Of a stretch of DNA of 64,000 nucleotides, positions 11,370 to 44,137 are shown piece after piece; positions within the stretch are counted from its first letter, which is position 1; each line of letters begins with the position of its first letter. Below the pieces are notes generated by a model, which had not been told where the DNA came from, did not search any database, and worked only from the letters and a program-made list of their open reading frames with translations. Made by a program: the position numbers and the translations under genes. The stretch is from an uncultured bacterium (GTDB lineage: Bacteria > Omnitrophota > Omnitrophia > Omnitrophales > Aquincolibacteriaceae): positions 26,052 through 90,051 of the forward strand of contig CAYPIR010000006.1 of the NCBI GenBank assembly GCA_964410905.1. Direction: 5' to 3'.

Positions 11370-11379
11370 GCCCTTACAT

Positions 11380-22224: not shown

Positions 22225-25200
22225 TTACTGAACCGTCCTTGTAACTTTTGATATTTTCATCTCTCCGCGAGATTTTGATAAATCATCAGGCCAAATAACT
22301 TTATTATTTTTAAGCGTTGCTCCAACCACTCCTTCCATAGCTTGACGAAGCATCCAACCCGCCGCGCCCGTATATCCATGCCAAATCATACGGCCCGGCT
22401 CATACGTGGTTAAAAGGTCTGCGGATTGTTTGTTAGGTTGTCCGCCATAAATCTCAATTTCGTTCATGTGAGAAATAGGCGAAATCTTCAACCAAAGGCG
22501 ATATGCGGTCGCGCGATACTGTTCCGCGCTTGCCGAGTCGCCCCGCTTTTCAAACTCTTCAGCCAAAAGCCGCGCGGCGCGGACAAGCCACTGAACTCCG
22601 TGGCAATACATACCGTTTTCCCGAACGCCTTCAGGATATTTACTGCTGCGCCCAAGATACGGTTTTGTGTCTTCGCGAAGCGCCGGCCAGCCGAGTAAAA
22701 TCGCGTTGTCTTTTTCCAACACTTGAAGTGCTGTGTTGAAAATTGTGACACCGCGTTCAAAATTAATACCTGACATAACAGACCAAGCGGCAGTCAAAGC
22801 GTCAATTTCCCACACGCCGCTGCCTTTAAGCCCGATTTCCGTTCCGTCATCGTGAAATGCGCGCAAATAACGGTCATCACGCCAAGTTTTTTCAAGGGCA
22901 ACTTTGAGCGCTTCTATTTTGTCTTGATAAAACTTCTTTTTCGCGTCACCCTCTTTTTTGCCGATTATGCCGACCATTTCTTTGAGAATATAATAAAGGA
23001 AAAAGCCAAGCCATACACTTTCGCCAATTCCTTCGCCACCAATCTCATCAAGCCCGTCGTTCCAATCGCCTACTCCCATAAGAGGTAAGCCGTTTCTGCC
23101 TGAGCGCTGCTTGATAACCAAATCAATTGAACGCATGCAGTGCTTATATAAGGTGTCGGAGCGAGTTGTTCTGTGATACATATGTCCCCAACCTTGTTTG
23201 TTTTTAGGAAGCTGAGCGAAGGGAAACTCAGAGACCATATAAGATTCCATTTCGTCAAGAATGGATTCATCGCCTGTGGCGCGGACATATTCTACAGCGC
23301 CCCAAGCAAGCCACAGCGGATTGTCGGACGCGTGGGAACGGCATGAAAAAGATGTCCGCCCGTCCGGCAATGTAAAGAACCAATGGTTCACATCGCCTTC
23401 AACAAACTGCTGCGCGGCGTGCAAGAGAATTTGTTTGCGCGCGAGCGCGGGATTTATCCAAATTAAATTGACAGTATCCTGCAATTGATCGCGGAAACCA
23501 AACGCGCCGCTAGTTTGATAAAAACCGCGTCGTGCCCAAATGCGTTCGGCAAGCGCTTGATACTTTAGCCAATTTTGATAGTGGTCAAACTCAGGCTGAT
23601 TGGTTTCAACTTTGAGAGTTCCCATCAAATTTAGCCACCACGACCGCGTCGCGTCAAGTTCTTTACGGACAAGATCAAGGTTCTTATATTTTTGGACAAG
23701 TTCAACAGCGTGCTTATGATTTTCAGTTTGTCCCAAAACAATAGCGACCGTAACTTCGCCTTGCGCCGGAATCTCAACAGTTCCGACAAAACCAGCGATT
23801 TGCGCAGAATCCGTGATTTGCGTTGTGTCAGGAGTATCGTTTTCAACTATATAGGGACGCTTTATGCCGCGGCCTGTTCCAAAAAAACGACCGCGTTTCG
23901 TTTCTACACAGTCGGCGGGAACAGACATAGAGGCAAATGCCCAACCCGGCCGGAAAAAGTTACGCGGATTCTCAAAATAAAGAGCGTCTGAAGCCTTGTC
24001 GTGTTTTACTTGAAGCGGTCCTGAGCGTTCTGGTTGAAATGAAAGCGCTATCTGAAAATACGGCGCGACTCGTAATTTGCGCGGAGTGTTTTCATCATTT
24101 TTAAGCGTCAAAAGATAAACGCCAAGAGGATCTTCTGTCGGGACATAAACCGTTAGACGCGAAGAGAGAGACCCGTCTTTCATCGTAAAAACCGCCGTGC
24201 CGTCAACGCTGAATTCCGCCTCGTGATGAGCGTTGTTGTCATTTAACGGTTGATATGTCGGCGAATACCATTCATCTCGGTCTGAGTCATAAAGATAAAT
24301 CGCTTCTGATGGGACCTCTTTTGTCGCCGTGTCAGGCCAATCAGGCGTTAAACGGTTTTGTTGTGAGTTCCCGTTACACGATGTGTGAAGCCCGCGATTT
24401 GTAACCATTACGGAATGCATTGGGTTCGACATCGCGTGGTCAAATGGACGCGGTGTATATGGAGTCAAAACTTTGAGAGTGTTTCCATCCTCAGAGTATT
24501 GATAGTAAGGCTGAGGTGTTCCAGATGGGATTTCGCCATGCCCGATTAAAAGTTTGCGGGCGGGCTTTTCAGATATAACCGAACGAGGCGCGGGATTAGG
24601 TTTGAGATATTTTTCGATTGTGTCCAGAGCGCCTTGTTTGTTTTTGGAGTAACCAATAATCATTTTAAATGACGCTGAGCTGTGCGGAGATACAGTCTCA
24701 GATACAAGAAGGCTGCCGATCGGATCAAATGTCGGATAACCTTTCATATCTTGCGCGGGTAAAAAGTCAAAAATTTCAAGCGCGCGCGGCTGCCAAACAC
24801 TTCGTCCGCGGCCGATAAAATCCACGCGTCCCGTATGCAAACCTTCGGGAGCGACATCGGTCGCCATAAAGCCGGTGGATTTTGTGCTTTTCTGCCAAGT
24901 AACAATGGCGTTGGATTTTGCGACATATTCCATTTCGGGATAAAGCCGCGCGTATTGAGTGTGAAATCTGTCGTGCATTCCTCCGTTTAAAACCCATTCA
25001 AGATATGGGACAACTTTTAAGTGGCGGGTTTTTTCGGATTGGTTTTCAATAGAAATATTCCAAATTTCCGCAGTAGCGGTTGAAGTTGGAATCGTAATAG
25101 TTACGACGGCTTTTACGCCATGACTTACATTCGTGATGACAATGCTTTCATCTTTGCGCTCGACATTGGATGGAACAAATTCTTCTGACGGAAAATTTCC

Positions 25201-28200
25201 CGTAATTGGCCACGCGAGAGGTCTGCCTTCAGTTCCGCCGGTCTCATCAACTATGAATAGAATGCGTCCCGATGGGTCTATTTGGTCGTAGGAACGGCGT
25301 GAAATATCGCATTCCTTTCCAATGAGTTCAGAATAAATTTCGCCATTTTGTTTGGCTACAACTTTATATTCACAATTGGCGATTTCATTTGCTTGGATTT
25401 GCCGCGCGGCAGATTTGGATCTTAGGATGCGCGTAATAAAAGAAATTATCGTGCAAACAAGAACGCCCGCGATAATCCATAGCAAAAGTTGCGCGAATGG
25501 CAGGGCCTGTAAAGCCGGTATAAGCCCCTTTCCGCGAAGAGAGTTTTGAATGTTTTCCGCTTTGCTCCACACTTCGTCCCATTGTTCTCCGCGAGGGATA
25601 TAAAACGGGATTAGCAGCGGCGCCCAAGTTGTAAAACGTTTTACGCCTTCCGGAATATAACGCTGAGCGGAGGCTTTCCCGATAAATTTAGAAACCTTTT
25701 CATCGAGTTTTTCCATTCCTAAGAAACTCAAATTCACCAGCGTCGCGACGCGAAGTCCCATGTGATCCATCCAAATCAAAATACGGAAGAAATCAAATGC
25801 CAAAATCCACACAAACATCTTAAGACTCCACGCCACAAAATCAGGGGCGGACATAGTTATATTGTTATAAATCGCGAACAATGTGCGGATGGCACCGTCT
25901 TGGTTATACCAAGTTGGATTAGGCATCATACGAAGGAATGTGTAGATGATAGGCGACATCCAAAGGCCCCATCGCAACACATGAATCATAAGTTCGCTGA
26001 GCTGCGCAAGACCGGCCTTGGAAAAGAAGAATTTAATGGGGGCTTTATCTTTGTCGAAGAATGCTTGTAAGAAAACTTTGTTTACCGCGAAAAGCCAAGT
26101 CGCGACCGACCATTTAATGACCCCGTCCAGCGATTCTGTGAAAAGAAGTTTTACGCCGCCCGTGCATTTTCCTAAGTCAATCATTCCCCATTTGCTTAAA
26201 AGAACAGGTTGAACATAATGTCCCAAATCGTTTAAGTAAGGATATACGGTGGTGGACATTTCCCCAAGATGATTAAACGCGGGATACGCGTTGCACTGAG
26301 CGGTTGTGAAATAAGTTGTTACATAAAGGTTTAGCTTGTAAATAATTACCGAAACTTGCGGAACATCAAGATAAAACGCGACTGCGCCGCCAAGAAAAAC
26401 GCCTAGAATTGAGTCGATAAAATAAAGCCGCCAAGTTTGAACTTTCCCTTGATGACGAATCGAATAATAAATATCGCGTAAAAGACTTATTCCGCCGGAA
26501 GCAATAAAACCGATTATGGCTCCAAGCCAAACGCGTTCTGACATGGATTTTTCGATATAACCTTGCGAAATTAAATACGCGAGTCCGGCACCCGCGATTG
26601 CCCCGCGGAAGTAAAGCGTTTTGCTCCTGTAGCTATAGGCGGCACGTTCAAAGAAAGGCAAACTTCCATCAAATGTTTCAATAATAGTTTTTACGAACGG
26701 GAAAAGAAGCATTCCGCCCAATGTTCCAATTACATAGGGGAAAGACGCCATCACGTTTTGTGAAACCGGCGCTTTAAAAAGCATTGAAATAAGATAAAGG
26801 ATGGCAATCAATATACCGCTGTAAGCCATACCTTTTTTAATGCCGCCGGAAACATTTTTGACAATGCTGTCCGCGGTCGGCGCAATGCGTTTCCCGCCGT
26901 CAAGAAGAATACCTGTTATTAAATAAACCTCGCCCCAAAGTCCTCCGAACGACAGGATTGTAGTCGCAAGCGCGACAAGAGCGCGAACAATTTCAGGCAA
27001 TTTTGCTACCATTGCCGAGGACCCAAAATCCGCGATTGAAGGAGCAATTACTACGGCAAGCGAAACAAGAAAAATATAGAGATGCGCTTTGAGGGTTGGC
27101 ACAACGCGTTCTTTCGTGGCGTAAGAAATTCCGTTCGCGAGAAGTTCATTGAATAAAAACACAACGGCTAGTCTGCCTAAAAATTCCAACGCGTTTGGAA
27201 AAGTCGCAAGAACACCAAAAGAAAAATTGTAAGTAAGCGTTTGGAGAAGTGTAACATTTTCAAGAAGCAGCAAAATGCCTACTAGATAAGGCGTCCCGAC
27301 AATAAGAGCCGCGGCGATTGGTTTTGTGCTTCTCCCAAAAGAAGAAAAGTTATGGACATTAAAAATCTGGTAAATAAAAAACGCGACTATTGCCGTGAGT
27401 TTATTAATCATCAAAAGATGTATCCACGAAGTCGGAATTTGTAAAAGTTCAAGGCTGCTGGCGGATGCCGCCAGTAGACCGGCGACAAAAACATTTTGGA
27501 AAGTTTCTGCGGCGGTGATCGCTTTGCCCGCCAAAACACATTTCATCCAAGCCGCGATGATGCCGCCCAAAAGTCCTATTAATAAAATCTTTGTAATTAG
27601 ACAAGTTCCCGAAATGGATGTTCTCCCAAGCGAATAAATCCAAAGCCCTGTGCCGATAACCAGGACGGTCATTAACCCGTATAAGAAATCTTTTTTGAGG
27701 CGTGAAAAAATCGACTCGCCTTTTGGTGAAATAATGTTCAGATTTTTATCTGATTCTTTTACAAAGACGCGTTTAATGAAATTTGACATGAACGGCAAAA
27801 TGACCGCGAGTATCAGGGAGAGCAAAATAACCGCGCCGAACTTAATTCCAACAAAAAAGCGTTGAGTGAAACTTTCATTAAAAAAATCCATTCCTAAATA
27901 TAAAGTGCCCTTTGAAATCTCTTTTGATTTTGGCGTAATTACAAAGTTGACTTCTTTTAGATCACCCAATTTCTGCCAATCAATAGTCTTGCGGATGGTA
28001 TTCCAGCCCGGTTTTATTCCAAGAGCGAAATCTTGCGTTGCCGATGCTCCTACGAGTTCGACCTTTGTTGATACTTCCCTGAGCTGTCTTGCTTCAAGAG
28101 CGCGAAAACCAATTTCGATAGTGTTTACATGAGTAGACTTTAAATCCTCAGGAAAATTTTTTGTCGAAATTGTTATTGGATTTCCTTCAACAAACGTATA

Positions 28201-29154
28201 CGCGAAATCGTAAACGTCTTTTCTCGCTTCATCATCAAAGGAAAAATTAATGGAACCTTTTGACGCGCCAACTCCCGAAACGCTTTTTGCGCTAGCGTCA
28301 AGAAGTCCGAAGAATGTTCGAGCAGAGGGCTGCATTTTGGGTTTTGCCGCGACTGGAACAATTTCTTTGGCTTTTTCTTTTACAATGGAAGGTGCTGTCT
28401 CGGCAGTTTTTTTGCGCTCCGCAAAAGGTTTTTTCGTGGCGAATTTTGTGGTTTTTTTCGTGTCCTTCGCAATTGTTGCGGTTTTCTCAGAAATAGTTTC
28501 GACCGTTTTTGCCGCTTCGGATTTCACCTCGGAAAGCTTTTTTGTCGTTTTGGCGATAATTGAATCATTCAATTCAAAACTAATTGCCAAAGTTCCTTTT
28601 ACAGTCAAATTCTTTAAGGATTTGACTTTAAATGAAACATTATTCAAAATACCGATTTTTGCCCAGTCGATTTTTTCTTGAAATACTGTCCAGCTGGATT
28701 TGAGCTTTAGAGGTATGACTTGAGTTCCGCTATCACCATTCAACTCCGCATTTACTGAAATCTCTTGAAGCTGAGAATCTTGGAAAACCTTCGCTTCGAT
28801 TTTTATGGCGCTGACAGAAGTTGAAACCAGTTTTTGCGAGAATTTTTGAATTTTTACGGCAACGGATGTTTTGGGCATCGCGACATAATCAAACTCCAAA
28901 ATGTCTTTTTTCGTCTCCTCATCAAAAGTTAAACTCTGATTTCCTTTCGATGCTCCAGTCGCAACGACTTCACGAGATGCACCGTCAATAATTGTTATCG
29001 GCGCTTGCGCGAAAGATGTGGCTGCGACTATGGTCAATAAAAATAAAAAACCAAAAACTTTTAAAAGTTTTTGGCTCGGCAAGTTAGAGGAAAGGGATGA
29101 AAGAGATTTGCAAATCTGTCGCATGGATTTTATCCTGTTGTTAAGGGTTGACAC
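22225..29154 (-). CDS. Giant 2309-aa multidomain envelope protein: signal peptide, two tandem beta-sandwich-like repeats, polytopic membrane domain of about 800 aa, cytoplasmic GH94-like glycoside phosphorylase region (cyclic beta-1,2-glucan synthase / cellobiose phosphorylase type)
   Basis: Uninterrupted 6.9 kb ORF. Hydrophobic run aa 31-50. Repeats aa about 51-196 and 281-426. Roughly 20 or more hydrophobic segments across aa about 433-1245. C-terminal GAFGFRDQLQD and GVGDWNDGLD motifs typical of the GH94 catalytic (alpha/alpha)6 domain. Confidence 0.6.
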   Translation of the reverse strand: MSTLNNRIKSMRQICKSLSSLSSNLPSQKLLKVFGFLFLLTIVAATSFAQAPITIIDGASREVVATGASKGNQSLTFDEETKKDILEFDYVAMPKTSVAVKIQKFSQKLVSTSVSAIKIEAKVFQDSQLQEISVNAELNGDSGTQVIPLKLKSSWTVFQEKIDWAKIGILNNVSFKVKSLKNLTVKGTLAISFELNDSIIAKTTKKLSEVKSEAAKTVETISEKTATIAKDTKKTTKFATKKPFAERKKTAETAPSIVKEKAKEIVPVAAKPKMQPSARTFFGLLDASAKSVSGVGASKGSINFSFDDEARKDVYDFAYTFVEGNPITISTKNFPEDLKSTHVNTIEIGFRALEARQLREVSTKVELVGASATQDFALGIKPGWNTIRKTIDWQKLGDLKEVNFVITPKSKEISKGTLYLGMDFFNESFTQRFFVGIKFGAVILLSLILAVILPFMSNFIKRVFVKESDKNLNIISPKGESIFSRLKKDFLYGLMTVLVIGTGLWIYSLGRTSISGTCLITKILLIGLLGGIIAAWMKCVLAGKAITAAETFQNVFVAGLLAASASSLELLQIPTSWIHLLMINKLTAIVAFFIYQIFNVHNFSSFGRSTKPIAAALIVGTPYLVGILLLLENVTLLQTLTYNFSFGVLATFPNALEFLGRLAVVFLFNELLANGISYATKERVVPTLKAHLYIFLVSLAVVIAPSIADFGSSAMVAKLPEIVRALVALATTILSFGGLWGEVYLITGILLDGGKRIAPTADSIVKNVSGGIKKGMAYSGILIAILYLISMLFKAPVSQNVMASFPYVIGTLGGMLLFPFVKTIIETFDGSLPFFERAAYSYRSKTLYFRGAIAGAGLAYLISQGYIEKSMSERVWLGAIIGFIASGGISLLRDIYYSIRHQGKVQTWRLYFIDSILGVFLGGAVAFYLDVPQVSVIIYKLNLYVTTYFTTAQCNAYPAFNHLGEMSTTVYPYLNDLGHYVQPVLLSKWGMIDLGKCTGGVKLLFTESLDGVIKWSVATWLFAVNKVFLQAFFDKDKAPIKFFFSKAGLAQLSELMIHVLRWGLWMSPIIYTFLRMMPNPTWYNQDGAIRTLFAIYNNITMSAPDFVAWSLKMFVWILAFDFFRILIWMDHMGLRVATLVNLSFLGMEKLDEKVSKFIGKASAQRYIPEGVKRFTTWAPLLIPFYIPRGEQWDEVWSKAENIQNSLRGKGLIPALQALPFAQLLLWIIAGVLVCTIISFITRILRSKSAARQIQANEIANCEYKVVAKQNGEIYSELIGKECDISRRSYDQIDPSGRILFIVDETGGTEGRPLAWPITGNFPSEEFVPSNVERKDESIVITNVSHGVKAVVTITIPTSTATAEIWNISIENQSEKTRHLKVVPYLEWVLNGGMHDRFHTQYARLYPEMEYVAKSNAIVTWQKSTKSTGFMATDVAPEGLHTGRVDFIGRGRSVWQPRALEIFDFLPAQDMKGYPTFDPIGSLLVSETVSPHSSASFKMIIGYSKNKQGALDTIEKYLKPNPAPRSVISEKPARKLLIGHGEIPSGTPQPYYQYSEDGNTLKVLTPYTPRPFDHAMSNPMHSVMVTNRGLHTSCNGNSQQNRLTPDWPDTATKEVPSEAIYLYDSDRDEWYSPTYQPLNDNNAHHEAEFSVDGTAVFTMKDGSLSSRLTVYVPTEDPLGVYLLTLKNDENTPRKLRVAPYFQIALSFQPERSGPLQVKHDKASDALYFENPRNFFRPGWAFASMSVPADCVETKRGRFFGTGRGIKRPYIVENDTPDTTQITDSAQIAGFVGTVEIPAQGEVTVAIVLGQTENHKHAVELVQKYKNLDLVRKELDATRSWWLNLMGTLKVETNQPEFDHYQNWLKYQALAERIWARRGFYQTSGAFGFRDQLQDTVNLIWINPALARKQILLHAAQQFVEGDVNHWFFTLPDGRTSFSCRSHASDNPLWLAWGAVEYVRATGDESILDEMESYMVSEFPFAQLPKNKQGWGHMYHRTTRSDTLYKHCMRSIDLVIKQRSGRNGLPLMGVGDWNDGLDEIGGEGIGESVWLGFFLYYILKEMVGIIGKKEGDAKKKFYQDKIEALKVALEKTWRDDRYLRAFHDDGTEIGLKGSGVWEIDALTAAWSVMSGINFERGVTIFNTALQVLEKDNAILLGWPALREDTKPYLGRSSKYPEGVRENGMYCHGVQWLVRAARLLAEEFEKRGDSASAEQYRATAYRLWLKISPISHMNEIEIYGGQPNKQSADLLTTYEPGRMIWHGYTGAAGWMLRQAMEGVVGATLKNNKVIWPDDLSKSRGEMKISKVTRTVQ

Positions 29155-36181: not shown

Positions 36182-36640
36182 TCAAAACTTTGAACTGTGA
36201 TAGGCAAAGTCGCGGACTTTACCTTCTAAGTCGAATTTAATGACAACGGTTAGGGTTTTTTGAGTCGTGCTTACCGCACTGGCGTTTTTCCCAAAAGTAC
36301 CGCCAAGGCCACCAAGAAGCAGAGTGGTACCAGGTACTCCGCCTGCGCCCACACCGCCGCCAAGGTTACCACTGCTTGAGGCATATGCTGCCTCGGTAGC
36401 AATTTTGTCATAGACCCATACTTCGCGTCTTTGCTCATCGGTCGTGACAACATTAGGAGATCCAAGTATTTCCGCTACCTGGGCATTCGTCATTCCGATC
36501 CTGATTTCCCGTTGCACTTTGCCAACTGTCAAACTGTTTGGTCCATTATCCTGCACATCTTGCCGGAGAGAGCTTGCCGAAACGCATCCGGATAAAGCCA
36601 TCAAACACGCGAGAATTAAAAAACCCGCCATCTTTTTCAT
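36182..36640 (-). CDS. BamE/SmpA-OmlA-like outer-membrane lipoprotein with a Gly-rich C-terminal extension
   Basis: Lipobox LSGC. IRIGMTNAQVAEILGSPN...EVWVYD matches the SmpA/OmlA fold motif. GGGVGAGGVPGTTLLLGGLGG glycine-zipper-like stretch. Confidence 0.5.
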   Translation of the reverse strand: MKKMAGFLILACLMALSGCVSASSLRQDVQDNGPNSLTVGKVQREIRIGMTNAQVAEILGSPNVVTTDEQRREVWVYDKIATEAAYASSSGNLGGGVGAGGVPGTTLLLGGLGGTFGKNASAVSTTQKTLTVVIKFDLEGKVRDFAYHSSKF

Positions 36641-36799
36641 ATTTCCTCCCTATATAAAATTAAAAAAATTTTTTACGGCGCAGAGTATAATGCACATCCG
36701 AATCCAGAGTCAAATGATTTAGCGCAAGCATCTCTGATTCTTCCAGCATAAAAACTCCGTTTCCTTAAAGATACATCAGTGTAAGCGCGCCATCAACCG

Positions 36800-37507
36800 T
36801 TAAAAATCAAAGGATTCACCTTCCCTCAGTTTGACGCAGTGTTTTCCAAAAAATCTGGCAAAGATCGGGGCTGCTCCAGGTCCCGAACAATGGAGCGGAA
36901 TGACTTTTTTGACGCCAAGGGTCTTGAGATCGGCGACGATCTTGATATTCTCTTCGGGATCGTTATCTTTCATGTGAAACCCGCCGCAGATGGCATAAAT
37001 ATTATCGCCGAATTCCTTGATGGCGCGCTTAACGATCTTGACGATCCCTGGATGCGCACATCCCGTGATAACCGAAAATCCTTTTCGGGACTTTACCACG
37101 AGCGCCTGCTCGTAAAGGATTCCGCGTCCAGTGTCGGCGCTCATCTGACCAATTGAATAAACATGATGAGAAATTTTTCTAACTGTATTGACCTCGACAA
37201 GTATCCCCCCGTTGCTTTTCACGAGATTTTTTAGATCTTTGCCGGCCTTCTTGCAGACATAGACTTGCGTTTGGGGCTGAGTCCGGAGCAATCCCCCAAG
37301 CCCCGCAATATGATCCCAGTCATCATGGGAGATCACGACATGCCGGACCCGAGTAAGATTGAACTTGAAACGTTTTACGTTCTCCCAAAAAACATCTGCC
37401 CGCCCGAACGCGTCGAAAAAAACATCTCCGACAAGAAAAGAAACGCCCCAACGCAAAGTTTTTCTTTCCCGGCTTGTTGATCCTTCGGCAATTAAACTAA
37501 TCTTCAC
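36800..37507 (-). CDS. MBL-fold metallo-hydrolase
   Basis: HVVISHDDWDHIAGLG (HxHxDH) motif. Confidence 0.65.
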   Translation of the reverse strand: MKISLIAEGSTSRERKTLRWGVSFLVGDVFFDAFGRADVFWENVKRFKFNLTRVRHVVISHDDWDHIAGLGGLLRTQPQTQVYVCKKAGKDLKNLVKSNGGILVEVNTVRKISHHVYSIGQMSADTGRGILYEQALVVKSRKGFSVITGCAHPGIVKIVKRAIKEFGDNIYAICGGFHMKDNDPEENIKIVADLKTLGVKKVIPLHCSGPGAAPIFARFFGKHCVKLREGESFDF

Positions 37508-37627
37508 AGGGTCACGGCCCCTCGACGATCTTGGCTGCTTCTTCTACGCATCCAAGGCAAGATATCTTTTTGATCGCTCTGAGTGAGCCAGATCGGCCAA
37601 GGTGATGGTCTTTTGCTTTCTTAACAC

Positions 37628-38149
37628 TCACTTAACAGGGACCTTCATATCATCAAGCATGGCCTCAAGATCTTCTTCATGCTCAACTTCATCAGCCAGG
37701 ATCTCGAGGATGATTCTTTCCGTGATAGGATCTTTCCCTCTTACGTAATCGAAGAGTTTTTTATAAGTCTCTATCGCGCACTGTTCGCCCTTGATGTTCT
37801 GTGAGAGGAGTGTTTTAGTGTTCGAATCCGAAGGAGCATCGTAACCGCAATTCGTTTCTTTTAAGATGTCCTGCGGCGTCAAAAGGGGCACTCCGCCGAG
37901 CTGGAGCATGCGCTCCACCAGCATTTCGGCGTGATGCAATTCTTCTCCAGCATGATCTTCTAATTCCTTCGCGATAATTTCTCGCATCCTTCCGGTCGCA
38001 ACCTTTGCGCCGACCCAATACTGATAATAAGCCAGCCATTCATCGGCATAGGCTTTATTCATCAGGATGAGCAGCTCCTTGATATTCACTCCCACGATCT
38101 CTCTTCCTTTAGCTCCCATATTTTTCTCCTTTTTTGTTTTTTTAAACAA
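37628..38149 (-). CDS. Ferritin-like di-iron protein (Dps/bacterioferritin-like)
   Basis: Paired E-x2-H motifs (ELEDHAGEELHHAE, DEVEHEEDLE) typical of the ferritin-like four-helix bundle. Confidence 0.55.
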   Translation of the reverse strand: MFKKTKKEKNMGAKGREIVGVNIKELLILMNKAYADEWLAYYQYWVGAKVATGRMREIIAKELEDHAGEELHHAEMLVERMLQLGGVPLLTPQDILKETNCGYDAPSDSNTKTLLSQNIKGEQCAIETYKKLFDYVRGKDPITERIILEILADEVEHEEDLEAMLDDMKVPVK

Positions 38150-38275
38150 TGCTTTTCACAACGAGATTCTACATTGGCTTCCAGGATATATACAATCCTG
38201 AAAAAAGCTTGCGCCGAAGGATCACCTCCGCCCAGTAAAACGAAGGGCGTCCCCGTATCCCCGTGAGTTACAAAA

Positions 38276-38285
38276 TCAATATTGA
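38276..38285. promoter_or_regulatory. Perfect palindrome TCAATATTGA, flanked by short CCCCGT/ACGGGG inverted repeats, in the ferritin-like gene upstream region. Candidate Fur/PerR-type operator.
   Basis: Seen directly in the sequence, about 115-130 nt upstream of the ferritin-like start. AT-rich dyad resembling Fur-family half sites. Confidence 0.3.
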
Positions 38286-38519
38286 CGGGGATAGCCCCTA
38301 GAAAAGGGATCTTTTGCTCAAGCGCTAGTTTTTGACCTCCTCGAGAGAGTCCACACTTTTCGTATCCGCGTCTTTAAATTCAGGATAAAAATACCGCGCC
38401 AGTGGACAAGAACGCAGGATAGGATCCGTAACGTTGATCACCTGCTCTTTCGAGACAGTGAGCACGGAAGAAAAATATTTCAATACATGCAGATCTCTTT
38501 CGACAGGACGGATCATGAC

Positions 38520-39371
38520 CTAAGCTTTTACAGCCTCCCAAATCCGGATCATTTCGGTTTTTAAAACGCCATTTGTGTGTTCCGTAACAGGTCTTCTCGC
38601 AATGACGGATTCAATAACAGCGCGATCGAAGGGTATTTTTCCGATCACGGGAATCTTTTGTCCTTCGCAAAAATGTTCGATTTTTTCAGAGGCTTCCGGA
38701 TTAATATCCCATTTGTTGATCACCAACCTGACCGGCACTTTAAAATGCGCCGCCAATTCGATCACCCTTTCGACATCGTGAAGGCCTGAAAGTGTTGGTT
38801 CGGTCACGACCACCGCGAGATCCACACCCGAAAGAGAAGCGATTACAGGGCATCCGATCCCCGGAGGACCATCAACGATTACATATTCCGCTTGAGTTTT
38901 TTCGGCGAGTTCTTTAGCGGTTTGTCGCACCTTCGCGACAAGCTTTCCAGAATTTTCTTCTGCAATTCCAAGTTTGGCGTGCACAAAAGATCCGTAGGGT
39001 GTTTCGGAAATAAACCACTCTCCTGCCGTATTTTCCTGCATGCGGATCGCATTCACCGGACACAGTCGCGCACAGAGACCGCATCCTTCACAATTAATCG
39101 GGCTCACGGCAAACTCCAAGCTGATGGCCTGAAAGCGGCAAGCGGCTTTACACTCGCCGCAACCCGTGCACAGAGACGGATTAATCTTGGCAAAAGCCCC
39201 GCTTCTGAAAGGATGCCGTTCTTTTATGGAGGAACCCAATAAAAGATAGAGATTCGCGGCGTCAACATCACAGTCCGCCATGACCTTGTTCTCTGCCAAG
39301 GTAGCAAAGGCTCCGGTGAGCATGGTTTTCCCCGTGCCACCTTTCCCGCTGATCACGACGATTTGCTTCAT
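38520..39371 (-). CDS. MinD/Mrp-like P-loop ATPase with an inserted 2x[4Fe-4S] ferredoxin domain
   Basis: GKGGTGKT Walker A, CTGCGECKAAC and CEGCGLCARLCP cluster motifs. Confidence 0.8.
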   Translation of the reverse strand: MKQIVVISGKGGTGKTMLTGAFATLAENKVMADCDVDAANLYLLLGSSIKERHPFRSGAFAKINPSLCTGCGECKAACRFQAISLEFAVSPINCEGCGLCARLCPVNAIRMQENTAGEWFISETPYGSFVHAKLGIAEENSGKLVAKVRQTAKELAEKTQAEYVIVDGPPGIGCPVIASLSGVDLAVVVTEPTLSGLHDVERVIELAAHFKVPVRLVINKWDINPEASEKIEHFCEGQKIPVIGKIPFDRAVIESVIARRPVTEHTNGVLKTEMIRIWEAVKA

Positions 39372-40210
39372 GCTCTCACCTTCGATGTCCCAAGTATAAA
39401 TTTGAAAAGGTCTAGAAATTTCTCCCGATATTCCGGCAATTGTTCAACAAAAGGAACCCCCGCAGAATAAAGTTCTGCGATTTTCCGGTCAAAAGGTATT
39501 TGAAGCATTACTGGAATCTCATGAGCCTTGAAATGGATCCGGGTTTTCAGATCGTGCGGTTCCGTCCGGTTCATGACAACTCCGTAAGGGATTTTAAGTT
39601 TCTTAACGGTTTCGATTGCGAGCTCGAGATCATTCATCCCGAAGGGTGTGGGTTCTGTGACCAAAATACAAAAATCACTTCCTTTCACAGCCGTCACCAT
39701 GGGGCATGAAGTACCCGGTGGTGCGTCAATAATCGTCATGCATGACCGGTCGATATGCGACTTGACTTGTCGAATAAGCGGAGGAGCCATAGTTTCACCC
39801 ACGGCAAGTTTCCCCTGAATAAAATCAATACCTCCCCTCTGCCCTATTTCAATTTCACCGATCGATCGGTCCACCTCCCGGATGGCTCCTTTGGGACACA
39901 GACGAGTGCAGGCTCCGCAGCTATGGCACATTTTGGGAAAAAAAAGAACCTTTTGGGGAAGGACTGCCAGCGCGTGATAGGCGCAAACTTCCTGGCATTT
40001 CCCGCAAAAATCGCACTTGGCATAATCTATCTCTGGGACTCGAACCGTTGCCGGTTTTCGATCGGTTATATTAGCTTTTAGAAATATCTGCGCATTGGGT
40101 CCCTCAACATCGCAATCGAGAAGCTGAGCGTGTTCTAGGGAAAGCGCCAGATTCACCGCCACTGTCGTTTTTCCGGTACCTCCTTTGCCGCTTGCCACCG
40201 AAATAATCAT
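39368..40210 (-). CDS. MinD/Mrp-like P-loop ATPase with 4Fe-4S ferredoxin domain (second paralog)
   Basis: SGKGGTGKTT, CDFCGKCQEVC and CHSCGACTRLCP. Start moved to MIISVASGKGG. Confidence 0.8.
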   Translation of the reverse strand: MIISVASGKGGTGKTTVAVNLALSLEHAQLLDCDVEGPNAQIFLKANITDRKPATVRVPEIDYAKCDFCGKCQEVCAYHALAVLPQKVLFFPKMCHSCGACTRLCPKGAIREVDRSIGEIEIGQRGGIDFIQGKLAVGETMAPPLIRQVKSHIDRSCMTIIDAPPGTSCPMVTAVKGSDFCILVTEPTPFGMNDLELAIETVKKLKIPYGVVMNRTEPHDLKTRIHFKAHEIPVMLQIPFDRKIAELYSAGVPFVEQLPEYREKFLDLFKFILGTSKVRA

Positions 40211-40854
40211 TGCGGTTTCTCTGCAATGATCGTTTGATGAAAGGAAGTTGTTGATTTTCTTACAAGAAACTTTTTTTTTCGAAGATAAGTTGCAGCCCAC
40301 GGCATCGTGACCGTGCCTTTACCATGCGTATTTTCTTCAAGAGCATGGATCTGTTCCATGGTTTTAAATCCCTTTTCCGTAAAATCACTCAGGATTAGCT
40401 TCCCTCCGGGCTTAAGAACGCGGATGAGTTCGTCCAGGACCTTGTGGGGCTGGATAAAATGGTGGAGGGTATTGATGGAGAAAACCATGTCGTAGCATTC
40501 GTCTTTAAAGCTTAAGTGTTCTCCGTTCTCCACGCGAAGATCCGCAAAATCGTCTAAAAGTTGAAATTTCAGATAAAGCTTTGCAAGATCGCGCTCTTTT
40601 TTCGAAATATCAAAACTGGTGAAGGTCAGGCCGCGCTTTGCCAAGGCGCTCGCAAAATGCCCCTTTCCTGTACCTGCTTCGAGTATTCTCCCGCGCAACG
40701 GAGAGGCTTGTTCAAGGATCACTTCCCGTTCTCTGTCGAGGTTGTAGCCGAACTTTAAGAACATTTTTTTGCGTTCAAATATCCGTCTCAACGCCGGCGA
40801 CAGCTCAGGGAGAATCTTGCTTTTCTTGGAAACTCGTATCGGATCAATTTTCAT
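40207..40854 (-). CDS. Class I SAM-dependent methyltransferase
   Basis: ILEAGTGKGHFA (motif I), LKPGGKLIL. Start moved to the internal ATG (MKIDPIRV). Confidence 0.65.
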   Translation of the reverse strand: MKIDPIRVSKKSKILPELSPALRRIFERKKMFLKFGYNLDREREVILEQASPLRGRILEAGTGKGHFASALAKRGLTFTSFDISKKERDLAKLYLKFQLLDDFADLRVENGEHLSFKDECYDMVFSINTLHHFIQPHKVLDELIRVLKPGGKLILSDFTEKGFKTMEQIHALEENTHGKGTVTMPWAATYLRKKKFLVRKSTTSFHQTIIAEKPQ

Positions 40855-41017
40855 GGGGAGAGATCGCCTGTGTTGGACAGAAAGAGATGCAAGACTCGCA
40901 TTCGAGGCATTGTTCGTTTGCAACTGCTTTACCTTGCGTTAGCCGGACGCTGTCCACAGAGCAAACAGCTATACAAACACAGCGACCATTACATTCTGTA
41001 GCCTCTGTTTTGACCAT
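40844..41017 (-). CDS. Small 57-aa ferredoxin-like protein, not in the supplied ORF track
   Basis: My own translation of the minus strand gives MVKTEATECNGRCVCIAVCSVDSVRLTQGKAVANEQCLECESCISFCPTQAISPHEN. It has a canonical C-x2-C-x2-C-x3-CP motif plus a second Cys cluster. Overlaps the methyltransferase start by 11 nt. Confidence 0.4.
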   Translation of the reverse strand: MVKTEATECNGRCVCIAVCSVDSVRLTQGKAVANEQCLECESCISFCPTQAISPHEN

Positions 41018-41045
41018 CTTGAATTTTCCTTATATGGATGAGTTT

Positions 41046-41417
41046 TTAGACTTTAGAGATTCCAGATTTCGAGATAACACTGGGATTTTTTGCAGCCTCT
41101 AATTTCCCGCTTTTATAATTCTCAAGAGCCTCTGAGATTTTTCCCGAAACTCCGGTAATGACATTGATCCCCGCTGATAGAGCAACCTCGAAAGCATTGG
41201 GGCCCATATTCCCCGTAAGAATAACTTCCACGCCCTTGGAAACTACCATCTGTACTGTCTGGATTCCGGCTCCACCCGAGTTTTGAGCATGGACGTTTTC
41301 AACCGTTTCGAAATCTCCGGAATCCGTATCAAAAATTAAAAAATACTTGCAGCGTCCGAAGCGCGGATCGACCGCAGCGTCGGGGGTCTTTCCCTCTGAA
41401 GTAATAGCTATTTTCAT
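41046..41417 (-). CDS. NifX/NifB-C-like dinitrogenase FeMo-cofactor-binding family protein (PF02579-like)
   Basis: MKIAITSEG...RFGRCKYFLIFD...VILTGNMGPNAFEVL pattern. Confidence 0.7.
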   Translation of the reverse strand: MKIAITSEGKTPDAAVDPRFGRCKYFLIFDTDSGDFETVENVHAQNSGGAGIQTVQMVVSKGVEVILTGNMGPNAFEVALSAGINVITGVSGKISEALENYKSGKLEAAKNPSVISKSGISKV

Positions 41418-41499
41418 AACCCTCCTTAAGTGAGTATCGTGTTTCTTACATTTTTAAGGGCACACAGCGCAATACTGTTATCTCAGGTGGAGCGCAGTA

Positions 41500-41865
41500 T
41501 TAGTGACATCCTCCTTCGTGCCCCGGGCAGCTCGCCAGTCCGCCGAGCTTGTTTTTGACAAGATCTTCAACTGCGGCTTTGACATTTCCGGAATAACCGA
41601 ACACCTGAATACCGGCTGCCGAAAATTTCTCTTGGGCACCCATTCCCATGCCGCCTGCGATCACATGCGTGACGTCGTGCTTCAACATTTCATCTACAGC
41701 CTGACAGCCGCCCTCGCCGTGTACTGCTGTATTTTGGGCCACTTTCGCCTCTTTGATTTTGTTTCCATTTAGTTCGACCACACAAAAATACTTACACTGA
41801 CCGAAATGTGCGGAGACTTCGCTATCGAGTCCGCGATCGTCATTGGTGGTAATGCCTATTCTCAT
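41500..41865 (-). CDS. NifX-like FeMo-cofactor-binding family protein with a C-terminal CPGHEGGCH motif
   Basis: MRIGITTND...HFGQCKYFCVVE...VIAGGMGMGA. Start moved to the internal ATG at 41865. Confidence 0.7.
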   Translation of the reverse strand: MRIGITTNDDRGLDSEVSAHFGQCKYFCVVELNGNKIKEAKVAQNTAVHGEGGCQAVDEMLKHDVTHVIAGGMGMGAQEKFSAAGIQVFGYSGNVKAAVEDLVKNKLGGLASCPGHEGGCH

Positions 41866-41929
41866 GTCGCTATCCTCCTGGTTCTCAAGAGACAGCCATC
41901 TGATTGTTGTCTGCCTCTTGAACACACGT

Positions 41930-42250
41930 TTAGTTTCCTTTTTTCTGTTTCTCTGTTTGCTGTAATTCGGTCAACCGTGAGCGAACTACTTCAAGCTCAC
42001 CTGAAAGATAAGCGGCTTGTTCTTTTAACAGTTCGCTCTCTTCTTTCTCACTGATTCCGGTCTGAACGGGATACACTTTTTGCCATCCGCTCAGCCCTGT
42101 AGCATAAAACTGGTTCCACCGTCCACGGCATCCCCAGCCACCCACGCGTCCGACACCTCGACTTGCTCCTGCAGAACGCGTGCAAAAGCCGCGTCCTCCT
42201 CCCGTCATCGGGCCGATACCCATGGGCCCCATTCCGTTTCCTCCTGGCAT
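41930..42250 (-). CDS. DUF5320-like protein (Gly/Met/Pro-rich N-terminus plus coiled coil)
   Basis: MPGGNGMGPMGIGPMTGGGRGFC N-terminus and coiled-coil tail. Strong SD AAGGAGGTGA 7 nt upstream of the ATG at 42250. The ORF-track start at 42283 lies inside the Fur-box-like site. Confidence 0.55.
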   Translation of the reverse strand: MPGGNGMGPMGIGPMTGGGRGFCTRSAGASRGVGRVGGWGCRGRWNQFYATGLSGWQKVYPVQTGISEKEESELLKEQAAYLSGELEVVRSRLTELQQTEKQKKGN

Positions 42251-42266
42251 AACAGTCACCTCCTTA

Positions 42267-42292
42267 TTGAAAATGGTTTTCATTGATAATCA
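42267..42292. promoter_or_regulatory. Fur-box-like operator (TTGAAAATGGTTTTCATTGATAATCA) immediately upstream of the DUF5320/NifX-like/MinD-like operon
   Basis: Contains a TGATAAT hexamer repeat and a GAAAATGGTTTTC dyad. Located between the fur stop and the SD of the DUF5320 gene. Confidence 0.4.
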
Positions 42293-42307
42293 AAAAAATA
42301 TAGTCGT

Positions 42308-42709
42308 CTACTTCTGACACTTTTCGCAAAGTCCATAGAACTCGATCACATGGTCCGTGATTTTGAAGCGAAATTTCTTCGACAGTCCGGCTTCAGTTTT
42401 TTTTAAGAGCCGCACTTCATCATCGATAAAATCCCGGTAATCTAAAACGCGGTTACAGGCTGTGCAGACCAAGTGGTGATGATGGTCATCGCTTTTAGAC
42501 CCGCGGATCAGCTCGTAACGGGCTCGCCCGTCACCGAACTCGTGTCGCGAAAGCACGTTCATCTCAGCAAGGAGATCCAAAGTCCGATAAACTGTAACAA
42601 GCCCAACCTTCGGATATTGTCTCCGAACCGCGTTAAACACCTCTTCTGCGCTTAAATGGCCACCCTTCTTGCTCACGACATTCAAAATCAACTCACGCGC
42701 GACCGTCAT
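42308..42709 (-). CDS. fur: Fur-family metalloregulator (Fur/PerR/Zur type)
   Basis: HTH region ELILNVV...HLSAEEVFNAV, regulatory motifs HHHHLVCTACNRV...C-x2-C. Probable start at the internal Met (MTVARELIL). The ORF-track frame extends to 42775. Confidence 0.8.
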   Translation of the reverse strand: MTVARELILNVVSKKGGHLSAEEVFNAVRRQYPKVGLVTVYRTLDLLAEMNVLSRHEFGDGRARYELIRGSKSDDHHHHLVCTACNRVLDYRDFIDDEVRLLKKTEAGLSKKFRFKITDHVIEFYGLCEKCQK

Positions 42710-42794
42710 ACGGCGGCCACAACCCCTCAACTGTCCCGAAAACCATGGTGGTCCACATCCATCTCGCCTAGGCATATTACTTTGCCTCCTTATT

Positions 42795-42814
42795 GAAAAT
42801 CATTATCAATAATA
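42795..42814. promoter_or_regulatory. Fur box (GAAAATCATTATCAATAAT) about 20 nt upstream of the fur ORF, implying autoregulation
   Basis: 14/19 match to the GATAATGATAATCATTATC consensus, with an exact ATCATTATC core. Confidence 0.5.
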
Positions 42815-43138
42815 TACTTTAAACAAGCACCTGTCAAATGTTTTAACTTGTTCATCTATCAAAAAAAATTGAAAAATATTCGAGTTCGAGATAGCCGCGT
42901 GATTGGTGAATGCCATTGGCACCTAAGGAGATAATTGCTTGCAGCAAACACTATCAGGGTCTTACAAAAAATTAAAAGAATTCTGAGGATAGAGCTTGAA
43001 GAGAATATGACATAAAGCAGTGTAAGCGCCCCGCCAATACTCAACCGAAGGTTGCGATGCAGAGCTTTATTTCCTTTCCGCACTTATTGATTGTTTTTTT
43101 TATTGACACATTAAAGAATATTCACAAAATAGAAAAAT

Positions 43139-44137
43139 ATGGTCGGTCGCAGAGCAAAACTCAGAAAAAGATTCTCGCGGTTTAAAGAACAGTTTATCAA
43201 AACGGTTTCCCGTATTAAGCCGATTGTCGCATTTCGTATTTTAGGCGGAATCGTTATTTTTTTCCCCGGCTTAGCACTTTCTATATTGATGTCACTTTCA
43301 CGAACAATTCGATGGCGAAAACTCGAAACTTGTAAAAAATTTTTATTGCACCATTCGCTCGCATTTGAAAATGTTCTTCCCGATTCGCTAACGGTGCGCT
43401 CTGTGTCCGGCGGGTTGAGTAATTCAAATCAAATTTGGTATTGCAAGAAAAAATCTGGCGAAGATGTAACATATTTCGTAAAAATCTTTTTGTCAGCGGG
43501 AAGTTTTTGGGCAAAACGCCTTTCTTTTGTCAGCCCGTTTCCGGCGATTTATGCGGGTAAAACTCATGAACGATTTACAACCGACATGGTAAGCCGTGTT
43601 CAATTGTCTGAGTATGGAGTTTCTGTCCCGCGGCTCGTCGCGTATGATGCTGTTGAAAAAGTTATGGTCGCAGAACATATTTCTGGCAGAAATGTCGATG
43701 CGATTTTGCAAAGAATTGGACGCCGCGGAAAATTTTTAAACGATGAAAAAGAAGTAATTCGTCAGTCGGCCATCGGACTCGCGAGGGCTCATCGAGCGGG
43801 ATTTTCCTTAATTGATACTCAACCCATTAATTGCATCTGGGTTTCTGGTGAAAAAAAAGTTTACTTCACCGACCTTGAATTTTGCACGCGAGAAGACACG
43901 CGGCTTTGGGATATAGGTTTTTTTCTTTGCTTTATAGCAGTTCGTCTTACAAGCAGTATACGGCAAACGGCGCGCGACATATTCTTGGAAAATTATAAAA
44001 AAGAGCAACCCCTCGATAGCGCGGCGCTAGACAGAACCGCCGAGACGCTTCAAAGTTATATGCCTGTCTTTCAAGCTATTCTTGATATAAGACAATTTAC
44101 GCCCGAAGAGCTTTTTGAAGGTTTAATTTCAGCGTGA
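43139..44137 (+). CDS. Membrane-anchored protein-kinase-like fold protein (Kdo/LPS kinase or RIO-like family)
   Basis: N-terminal TM. HRAGFSLIDTQPINCI resembles the HxDLxxxN catalytic loop and YFTDLEF resembles the DFG/IDFE metal-binding motif. Confidence 0.35.
   Translation: MVGRRAKLRKRFSRFKEQFIKTVSRIKPIVAFRILGGIVIFFPGLALSILMSLSRTIRWRKLETCKKFLLHHSLAFENVLPDSLTVRSVSGGLSNSNQIWYCKKKSGEDVTYFVKIFLSAGSFWAKRLSFVSPFPAIYAGKTHERFTTDMVSRVQLSEYGVSVPRLVAYDAVEKVMVAEHISGRNVDAILQRIGRRGKFLNDEKEVIRQSAIGLARAHRAGFSLIDTQPINCIWVSGEKKVYFTDLEFCTREDTRLWDIGFFLCFIAVRLTSSIRQTARDIFLENYKKEQPLDSAALDRTAETLQSYMPVFQAILDIRQFTPEELFEGLISA

Follow-up and report, generated by a model that had tools for sequence, protein, structure and literature searches.

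A Fur-headed gene cluster of the ORP type in an Omnitrophota genome and its probable link to iron-sulfur handling

We analysed a 64,000-nt stretch of the Omnitrophota contig CAYPIR010000006.1 (referred to below, at its full length, as the window), in which a gene cluster headed by a fur gene occupies positions 36800-42814 of the minus strand. By its gene content, the cluster is the Omnitrophota version of the ORP (orange protein) system of anaerobes. We consider it probable, with appreciable room for doubt, that it represents an ORP-type metallocluster module wired as an operon under Fur-repressor control and devoted to iron-sulfur (Fe-S) handling. The proposed function is Fe-S handling that would be derepressed when iron runs low and perhaps also by oxidants. 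Its Fe-S part is based on the domain chemistry of the encoded proteins, on the precedents of MrpORP and IssA, and on the genes for NifU, Mrp, ZIP, DPSL (a DPS-like protein) and TonB found with the cluster in related genomes.

The control regions were assessed first with material from outside the window. Equivalent regions were gathered from 26 other genomes with fur ahead of the cluster, and a 21-bp position weight matrix (PWM) was trained solely on the sites of these fur-led loci. The two sites that it returned in the window are listed together with the fur promoter:

42809-42837, minus strand: fur promoter of the sigma-70 type, TTGACA-17 nt-TATTAT (11 of 12 consensus positions)
42791-42811, no strand assigned: Fur operator 1, 27.8 bits with the foreign-genome PWM
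42265-42285, no strand assigned: Fur operator 2, 24.5 bits with the foreign-genome PWM

The third-best PWM site in the 64 kb scored 7.5 bits, and the maxima in 200 random windows generated with a first-order Markov model (Markov-1), our chance control, had a mean of 10.2 and a largest value of 19.3. An earlier interpretation of the region, made from the sequence alone (the sequence-only reading), had spoken of recognisable Fur boxes, and these scores bear it out. The fur promoter is the best promoter-like site within 36500-43300. On its downstream side, the -10 hexamer is abutted by the palindrome core of operator 1, TGATAATGATTTTCA (minus strand, 42808-42794); the classical 7-1-7 Fur box TGATAATNATTATCA has a single one-mismatch match in the 64 kb, at 42794-42808. 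With operator 1 abutting the -10 hexamer of a sigma-70 promoter so close to consensus, the geometry suits repression. The core of operator 2, TGAAAACCATTTTCA, falls in the spacer that separates the fur stop from the DUF5320 start and is preceded by a weak promoter-like sequence (TAGACG-16-TATCAA). The fur and DUF5320 modules are collinear, each presenting a -35-like element, a -10-like element, the operator, ATAAGGAGG and ATGCC. We regard the two predicted Fur-type operators as real, far beyond chance, and as placed where a repressor would occlude the promoter. Fur control of the operon, as claimed previously, is supported by operators at fur and DUF5320; for the ferritin-like (DPSL) and metallo-beta-lactamase (MBL) genes, the PWM scan of the window returned no operator of their own.

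Gene anatomy was derived from the listing of open reading frames (ORFs) and from Pfam and NCBIfam profile scans of the window. The previously described minus-strand order of eleven genes was recovered in full, with the same domains and in the same places. The complete map, remnants included, is as follows (SAM, S-adenosylmethionine):

42308-42775, minus strand: fur, 155 aa (PF01475, E=2e-29, covering residues 20-147)
41930-42250, minus strand: DUF5320, 106 aa (PF17253, E=3e-21)
41500-41865, minus strand: NifX-like (Nitro_FeMo-Co) protein a, NifXa (PF02579, E=2e-19)
41046-41417, minus strand: NifX-like (Nitro_FeMo-Co) protein b, NifXb (PF02579, E=9e-27)
40844-41017, minus strand: ferredoxin of 57 aa with 8 Cys (Fer4, E=1e-4)
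40207-40854, minus strand: class I SAM-dependent methyltransferase, 215 aa (Methyltransf_11, E=2e-22)
39368-40210, minus strand: MinD-type ATPase paralog a, Orp3/Orp4-like (ParA/CbiA + Fer4)
38520-39371, minus strand: MinD-type ATPase paralog b (ParA/CbiA + Fer4)
38325-38516, minus strand: 63-aa ORF, a DUF2099 remnant (tblastn with the protein of the related locus L004)
38137-38340, minus strand: remnant of an Mrp/NBP35 (MrpORP-like) gene, last 68 codons (comparison with the L004 protein)
37628-38119, minus strand: DPS-like (DPSL) di-iron protein of the ferritin superfamily, 163 aa (PF00210, E=9e-28)
37524-37583, minus strand: C_GCAxxG_C_C remnant in the DPSL/MBL spacer (tblastn, E=7e-4)
36800-37507, minus strand: MBL-fold protein of the COG1237 type with an HDDWDH motif (weak matches to Lactamase_B and Lactamase_B_2)

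The gene starts chosen by callers on independent assemblies are the same as in the window. Exact matches to the window's proteins were confined to short Logan contigs from four read sets, and the names of the nearest hits point to Candidatus Omnitrophota.

Several lines of evidence underlie the assignment to the ORP system. NifXb matches the Desulfovibrio gigas orange protein (2WFB, E=5e-17) over residues 2-112 of its 123; there are two paralogous MinD-type ATPases with Fer4 domains; the window scan gave partial matches to the MrpORP model; and relatives carry an MrpORP-like carrier. In the described system, Orp3 and Orp4 are MinD-type ATPases with ferredoxin motifs, Orp8 is a Nitro_FeMo-Co protein, and Orp9 (MrpORP) is an Mrp carrier that transfers Fe-S clusters to Orp3-Orp4-Orp8 (PMC6345978). 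The sequence-only reading held that such a gene combination recurs in anaerobes and has no assigned function; the recurrence is evident, and the combination does have a name, that of the ORP system, though its physiological role is still called unclear (PMC6345978, PMC8359166).

How widely the set is conserved was determined in a sample of 80 loci, one genome per species, containing relatives of the second ATPase (paralog b). These loci span Omnitrophota, Planctomycetota, Elusimicrobiota, Nitrospirota, Syntrophales, Desulfobacterota, Chloroflexota, Atribacteria, Clostridia, Aminicenantes, Ignavibacteria, Zixibacteria, Verrucomicrobiota and archaea. In the ORFs of these loci, profile searches counted the families as follows:

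ATPase pair: 75 of 80 loci
NifX-like: 69 of 80 loci, with two or more copies in 57
DUF5320: 52 of 80 loci, normally the first gene behind the regulator
MBL: 32 of 80 loci on the same strand, a recurrent trailing gene
methyltransferase: 30 of 80 loci
Mrp-like carrier: 30 of 80 loci
NifU_N scaffold: 28 of 80 loci
fur heading the cluster, with the same operator: 26 of 80 loci in at least 8 phyla
DUF134: 19 of 80 loci
small ferredoxin: 18 of 80 loci

The gene-neighbourhood comparison, which had been put forward as a check, thus finds the set conserved together across many phyla. The gene set and its co-occurrence are already known in the sense that they are visible in genome databases, and the original ORP synteny analysis is reportedly that of Fievet et al. 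2011. What appears to be new is the Fur-led architecture with its conserved double operator in at least eight phyla, the presence of DUF134 in the same slot, and the conserved methyltransferase; our literature search found no paper that connects Fur with ORP genes and none that treats DUF5320. Among the relatives' extra genes are those for a NifU-type scaffold, an MrpORP-like carrier and a ZIP transporter, DPSL genes, and TonB/ExbBD genes beside fur.

Of the 59 loci with at least 1.2 kb of upstream sequence visible, 21 have fur in the regulator slot before the cluster, 16 contain DUF134 and 22 contain neither; a sigma-54 enhancer-binding protein occurs at only 3 loci. DUF5320 is found also in Thermodesulfobacteriota loci with an enhancer-binding-protein gene (L058). 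Even close relatives differ: L004 and L008 (90-94% identical) have fur, and L007 and L009 (~80%) have DUF134. At the cluster head, Fur and DUF134 thus seem able to replace each other. DUF134 is a helix-turn-helix protein resembling sigma-70 region 4, and it takes the regulator slot in ~19-20 genomes, archaea and close relatives of the window lineage included (L007 364-747, L009, L036, L041, L047-L049, L052-L057, L059-L061, L068, L076, L077, L084, L085). In DUF134-headed clusters of Ignavibacteria and Zixibacteria, a Fur-type site of 15.7-22.8 bits stands before a second DUF5320 gene (L055 6163, L060 4273, L061 3549), which suggests that such clusters may also be targets of a Fur protein encoded at another genomic site.

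The methyltransferase and the ferredoxin had been considered unusual additions, a view that the comparison overturns. Orthologs of the methyltransferase (42-89% identity) are located between the NifX/ferredoxin genes and the first ATPase gene in ~17 Omnitrophota species, and the small ferredoxin occupies the NifX/methyltransferase slot in ~11 of the 18 loci having one. More distant methyltransferase relatives (~30% identity) lie downstream of the ATPases in Planctomycetia, Saganbacteria and Actinomycetota. The methyltransferase of the window belongs to a conserved, cluster-specific subfamily in Omnitrophota.

The operators are conserved along with the genes. Across the fur-led loci the operator consensus is TAATGAAAATnATTTTCATTA. 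An equivalent of operator 1 is found 5-25 nt upstream of fur in ~23 of the 24 fur-led loci that have upstream sequence (26 loci in total), and an equivalent of operator 2 is found 13-27 nt past the fur stop in 19 other genomes. The outer TAA/TTA positions are 71-95% conserved though they lie outside the pattern by which the training sites were selected. The related loci, 1.2 Mb altogether, contain 54 sites scoring at least 14 bits, of which 47 flank fur, just upstream or downstream of it. The operator core equals the published 17-bp dFUR box WTGAAAATNATTTTCAW, which precedes feoAB and fur in delta-proteobacteria (Rodionov et al. 2004; PMC545781). An iron-limitation microarray of G. sulfurreducens is said, in a personal communication, to have confirmed the predicted FUR regulon (PMC545781). 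An unbiased scan of metagenomes for the palindrome, which returned 80 loci, recovered the fur-DUF5320 clusters (8 loci) and zip-fur operons (~10), and in addition lone fur genes, TonB-dependent receptors, ZIP transporters and one ZnuA gene. In the zip-fur contigs (L092, L097, L100, L102, L121, L123, L133, L139, L145, L160), a 19-bp palindrome is situated ~18 nt upstream of the ZIP gene, which is followed by a short (~121 aa) Fur-family gene whose product is 30-33% identical to the window Fur and has Glu at the PerR-Asp104 position. In L102, a small ABM-domain gene lies opposite the zip-fur operon.

For DUF5320, the true start is the second Met, preceded by an AGGAGG ribosome-binding site (RBS). 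Its N-terminal half is rich in Gly, Arg and aromatic residues (MPGGNGMGPMGIGPMTGGGRGFC...), and its C-terminal half is helical and rich in Glu and Leu. A word-based search with this protein returned 45 close relatives only, and among them there were no domain fusions and no informative names. The two NifX-like proteins are 33% identical to each other. NifXa is rich in Cys and His (C24, C28, C54, C113, C120 and the tail CPGHEGGCH), with PH0822 and TM1816-type proteins as its solved relatives. NifXb has one Cys only and matches TM1290 (1RDU, 9e-23) and MTH1175 (1EO1, 3.5e-19) over its full length. The 57-aa ferredoxin, which is annotated as a gene in independent assemblies, combines one atypical motif (CX3CXCX3C) with one canonical motif (CxxCxxCxxxCP). 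The ferredoxin gene shares 11 nt at its 3' end with the beginning of the methyltransferase gene, and ATPase a overlaps both neighbouring genes by 4 nt each; because of these overlaps, the genes from the ferredoxin to the second ATPase are considered translationally coupled.

The two ATPases are clear paralogs (33% identity, E=1e-48), and each contains an inserted 2x[4Fe-4S] ferredoxin domain with CxxCxxCxxxC occurring twice; the Walker A motif of both is deviant (GKGGTGKT). The AlphaFold model of ATPase b (pLDDT, the predicted local distance difference test, of 86) is nearest in fold to MinD/FlhG and next to NifH/BchL. The fold search with the model returned the generic MinD/ParA/NifH family only, and structure and fold searches revealed no counterpart of the ferredoxin insert among solved structures. 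Each ATPase has a Cys seven residues past the Walker B-type Asp (C174 in b, within DGPPGIGCP; C169 in a, within DAPPGTSCP), and C174 is invariant in 12 homologs. The spacing equals that of Asp125 and Cys132 in NifH. This hints at a metal or cluster site that would bridge the dimer. For the methyltransferase, the NCBIfam scan gave no model at its cut-off. Membership in the DVU_1556 family was rejected (55 bits against a cut-off of 155), as were BioC, UbiG and ArsM-type assignments, whose matches were far under the cut-offs; the solved relatives are generic O-methyltransferases. The best solved relative of DPSL is the Bacteroides DPS-like protein 2VZB (E=1.5e-39), with Sulfolobus DPSL 2CLB also matching, and the solved relatives of the MBL protein are 7DCK (6e-32), TM1679 and 2P4Z.

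Locus L004, from a 94%-identical relative, served as the reference for deletions and for the ratio of nonsynonymous to synonymous substitution rates (dN/dS). Comparison with it indicates that the window locus is a partly decayed, trimmed copy of the cluster. The 63-aa ORF is present, as reported earlier, and is a deletion scar; its status as a gene in its own right is ruled out. Its codons 1-59 (38516-38340) correspond at 78% identity (tblastn with the L004 protein) to the N-terminus of a DUF2099 protein of 334 aa, whose gene L004 has kept intact (10856-11860). At 38340 this fragment is fused out of frame to the Mrp remnant, which shares 90% identity with residues 218-285 of Mrp from L004. The junction recurs in the Logan assemblies L001 and L002, built from separate read sets, and being present in independent assemblies, it is no assembly artefact. 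The C_GCAxxG_C_C remnant retains 20 codons (residues 75-94 of the L004 protein) of a gene that is intact in L004, L007 and L009. Altogether, ~8 kb of the extended cluster has been deleted in the window lineage, taking with it the body of DUF2099, NifU_N, ZIP, most of Mrp, AhpC and several unrelated genes. The surviving intact core genes have dN/dS values of 0.03-0.22 against L004, and the 57-aa ferredoxin has 0.33; by this measure, the core genes are under purifying selection. The remnants (0.23-0.29) reflect mostly their history before the deletion, and their values are uninformative. On the MrpORP model, the L004 Mrp protein scored 351.7 bits over positions 1-253 of 365; since the coverage is partial and the score is below the cut-off of 450, we classify it as a single-domain Mrp. 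The L004 DUF2099 protein scored 230.8 bits on the 'methanogenesis marker 8' model (cut-off 232.7), and its near-cut-off occurrence in a bacterial cluster suggests that the family resembling this marker is not confined to methanogens.

Around the cluster, the divergent gene at 43139-44137 (plus strand) encodes 332 aa with a weak match to Bud32/RIO-type kinases (E=4e-7, below the cut-off), and the PWM scan found no Fur operator facing it other than operator 1. A single ORF of 2309 aa fills 22225-29154 (minus strand). The Rfam scan of the window detected two tRNAs only, with no riboswitch or other RNA element. No convincing intrinsic terminators were found on the minus strand to mark the end of the operon.

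The regulator itself has the winged-helix and dimerisation domains of Fur and the structural Zn site made of two CxxC motifs (C104xxC107, C150xxC153). Its further key residues are H40, E88, HHHH 98-101, D112 and, within YRTL, R64. Among solved structures, its closest relative is the Fur protein of 9IRE (E=1e-27), and identity to the cluster-linked Fur proteins of other phyla amounts to 42-63%. We therefore take the window regulator to be a Fur-family protein and infer repression as its mode of control. Since the operator is of the Fur type, iron is the presumed signal, and Fe(II) would most likely be the co-repressor metal. The sequence-only reading had proposed an iron-responsive metallocluster system. 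The metallocluster part fits the genomic context of the relatives; as to the signal, iron is what the operator type implies, and an oxidant or another metal is possible.

On this basis the following mode of operation can be proposed. A metal-loaded Fur dimer would bind the 21-bp palindrome at both places and block RNA polymerase. Through operator 1, it would autoregulate fur and control read-through transcription, and through operator 2 it would control the second promoter/operator/RBS module, located before DUF5320. If the metal is lost because iron is short or, possibly, because the site is oxidised, the outcome would be co-expression of DUF5320, NifXa, NifXb, the ferredoxin, the methyltransferase and ATPases a and b, and of fur too. 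The two ATPases, presumably carrying two [4Fe-4S] clusters each, may form an ATP-dependent heterodimer like that of Orp3 and Orp4. Together with the NifX-like carriers, the heterodimer may hold, mobilise or deliver Fe-S species to clients when iron is limiting. We infer both the heterodimer and its role in Fe-S trafficking.

A number of observations weigh against this interpretation. The promoter-like sequence ahead of operator 2 is weak and fell short of what the promoter scan demanded. Fe-S-rich proteins are not what a cell starved of iron would be expected to induce, unless their role, like that of SUF, is in salvage or delivery. Scaffold and carrier genes have been deleted from the window, and the module may work differently or may use genes elsewhere in the genome. 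The same palindrome precedes zip-fur operons and the ZnuA gene, so that zinc or manganese is possible as the signal. For the ORP system of Desulfovibrio, a link with cell morphology and cell division has been described, and a higher redox potential switches the system off (PMC8359166). Finally, the sensor residues are mixed: D112 is an Asp at the position of B. subtilis Fur Glu108 and of PerR Asp104, and E88 is a Glu at the position of PerR Asp85. The oxygen donor at position 104, Asp in PerR and Glu in Fur, is proposed to govern the access of H2O2 (PMC4866751). Because Fur-like and PerR-like residues are combined in this way, the residues do not permit a verdict of a pure iron sensor.

In view of the mixed site, one alternative has to be taken seriously, though we judge it unlikely: the regulator would be a PerR-like peroxide or redox sensor with a Fur-type DNA-reading head, oxidants would derepress the operon, and the cluster would repair or replace damaged Fe-S clusters alongside AhpC and the DPS-like protein. 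Asp at the D112 position is common to most cluster-linked Fur proteins, whereas the ZIP-linked ones with the same box have Glu; however, it is not universal, as L034 has Glu, L050 Ala and L042 Asn. AhpC and DPSL genes neighbour the cluster in L004, L034 and others, but they have no operator, and AhpC is absent from the window. The Desulfovibrio ORP system is itself redox-controlled, yet derepression by oxidants would be opposite in sign to control by OrpR. Moreover, beyond the Asp at the 104 position, PerR features are wanting: the Glu at the equivalent of Asp85 is not that of PerR, and the operator is of the TGA...TCA (Fur) type, with half-sites that read TGAnAAT, not TTATAAT, and it differs both from the B. 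subtilis PerR box TTATAATNATTATAA and from the PerR signal of Desulfovibrio. An iron sensor and a peroxide-labile sensor would be alike in one respect, as both predict derepression under stress on the Fe-S supply.

It is improbable, in our estimate, that the main task of the module is MinD-like positioning or cell division, the role first put forward for the ORP complex of Desulfovibrio, and that metal control only tunes the supply of Fe-S cofactors. The ATPase fold is indeed nearest to MinD and FlhG, and in the ORP literature inactivation of OrpR leads to morphological defects and MrpORP shows polar localisation (PMC6345978, PMC8359166). However, no MinC, MinE or division genes occur nearby in the window, the genes conserved with the ATPases encode NifX-like carriers, NifU, Mrp and metal transporters, and the ORP authors themselves term the division role a hypothesis (PMC8359166).

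A more speculative idea, to which we attach comparably little probability, concerns the N-termini. Cluster-linked Fur proteins begin with MPR[GR][DN]G.GP.WWHG[KR]F[KR]GCGYR, and the window Fur opens with MPRRDGCGPPWF...RGCG (42700-42775). The DUF5320 opening, MPG[GF]DGTGP.G.GPMTG..G[FY]C (in the window, 42180-42250), echoes the Fur opening, so that Fur and DUF5320 share a tag of the form MP-x-x-D/N-G-x-G-P, Gly/Arg-rich, then Cys. In the clusters of many relatives, a third family of ~75-aa Gly/Arg-rich ORFs opens with MPRGDGTGP.GQGPGTGRGMGRGGGRGR, examples being:

L010, 4317-4538: third-family ORF
L019, 6835-7059: third-family ORF
L021, 8301-8531: third-family ORF

The pattern MP..[DN]G.GP is matched by 72 of 7873 ORFs (40 DUF5320, 27 of the small family and 5 Fur), with no other annotated family among them. 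The 5' region of fur resembles a duplicate of the promoter, operator, RBS and first codons of DUF5320. Conceivably, the cluster Fur is not a general iron sensor but a Fur/PerR hybrid dedicated to monitoring the ORP machine itself, with the N-terminal tag as a shared handle. The tag may bind anionic iron-sulfide species, as proposed for the IssA tail, may dock on the NifX or ATPase proteins, or may be a substrate of the cluster methyltransferase. Any of the three would couple transcription to the load of the ORP system.

The least probable option, a Zur-like regulator sensing zinc or another divalent metal with the cluster as a zinc- or metal-economy response, can draw on the ZIP transporter inside the cluster in close relatives, the ZnuA/ABC-3 genes flanking it in L007 and the palindrome before the ~10 zip-fur operons and the ZnuA gene of the metagenomes, but the ZIP-linked regulators are another subfamily (30-33% identity), the window Fur has H40, equivalent to His37, and lacks the Cys ligand of Zur at the Asp85 position, published Zur boxes are unlike the window operator, and all other components of the cluster indicate Fe-S chemistry.

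If the interpretation as a Fur-controlled Fe-S module is right, its interest reaches beyond this locus. The ORP set, which spans bacteria and archaea (80 species-level genomes), is among the most widespread anaerobe-specific clusters, and its role is called unclear after ~twenty years of work on one genus. The Fur-led third of the genomes would provide the first regulatory clue outside Desulfovibrio, connecting ORP with the status of a metal, probably iron, and not with cell division, and this link makes the function of the cluster testable. Fur, DUF134 and the sigma-54 activator OrpR in the same slot would make a clean case of rewiring a conserved machine. Two of its parts, the conserved methyltransferase and the Gly/Arg-rich DUF5320 proteins, are new ground. 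Partial decay lowers the value of the window copy itself, and the class to which it belongs stays informative.

Among known systems, the dFUR regulon resembles the cluster in regulation. The core of the operator, the autoregulated fur gene and metal-uptake targets are shared. The published members, however, are feoAB, porins, flavodoxin and hypothetical genes, and ORP genes are not included, whereas here fur is the first gene of an ORP-type cluster and, within 10 kb, operators are found only there. The suf operon of E. coli, Fur-repressed and responsible for stress-time Fe-S assembly, offers a functional parallel. Both would be Fe-S handling operons with an ATPase, derepressed at iron scarcity or oxidative stress; in contrast to suf, the window cluster employs MinD-type ATPases and NifX-like carriers and has no SufBCD or SufS homologs.

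IssA of Pyrococcus furiosus is a protein of the IPR003731/Nitro_FeMo-Co type that binds inorganic iron-sulfur species, stores thioferrate and can rebuild [4Fe-4S] ferredoxin (PMC5524996). The Nitro_FeMo-Co domain is common to IssA, NifXa and NifXb. IssA differs in having a Gly/cationic/aromatic C-terminal tail of its own and in forming thioferrate nanoparticles; NifXa ends with ...LASCPGHEGGCH and NifXb with ...AAKNPSVISKSGISKV, neither of which is a tail of the IssA type. A composition like that of the IssA tail is found on a separate protein, DUF5320, and this is a resemblance only.

The ORP system of Desulfovibrio vulgaris Hildenborough (Orp3, Orp4, Orp5, Orp8 and Orp9/MrpORP, with OrpR) is the closest known counterpart. 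Common features are a pair of MinD-type ATPase paralogs with two [4Fe-4S] motifs apiece, a single-domain Nitro_FeMo-Co protein (NifXb, an orange-protein homolog), an Mrp/NBP35 carrier in the wider cluster of the relatives, confinement to anaerobes, and a dedicated regulator encoded in the cluster. The Desulfovibrio system is further characterised by the small accessory proteins Orp5 (Cys-rich, [2Fe-2S]) and Orp7, by a physical complex of Orp3, Orp4 and Orp8, and by a Mo/Cu or Fe-S cofactor. Its genes form two divergent operons, and their activation is by sigma-54, IHF and OrpR, a redox sensor (PMC3897727, PMC8359166). Sigma-54 control was rejected for the window cluster, as 17 consensus matches were found against 28 expected in the window, none of them upstream of the cluster. 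OrpR control was likewise rejected, the palindrome GGGCGYRTTTTGCGCCC occurring at 29.6 and 31.2 kb only, away from the cluster; the GAFTGA signature of enhancer-binding proteins was found in no frame of the window. In place of this arrangement, the window has one co-directional operon, predicted to be controlled by a Fur-family repressor at sigma-70-type promoters, into which two NifX-like genes, the 57-aa ferredoxin and the SAM-dependent methyltransferase are inserted. MrpORP has a fused C-terminal Nitro_FeMo-Co domain, whereas Mrp is reduced to a 68-codon scar in the window and has no fused domain in the relatives. The two systems would also differ in the sign of their response: the window cluster is predicted to be derepressed under stress, whereas OrpR is active only at low redox potential.

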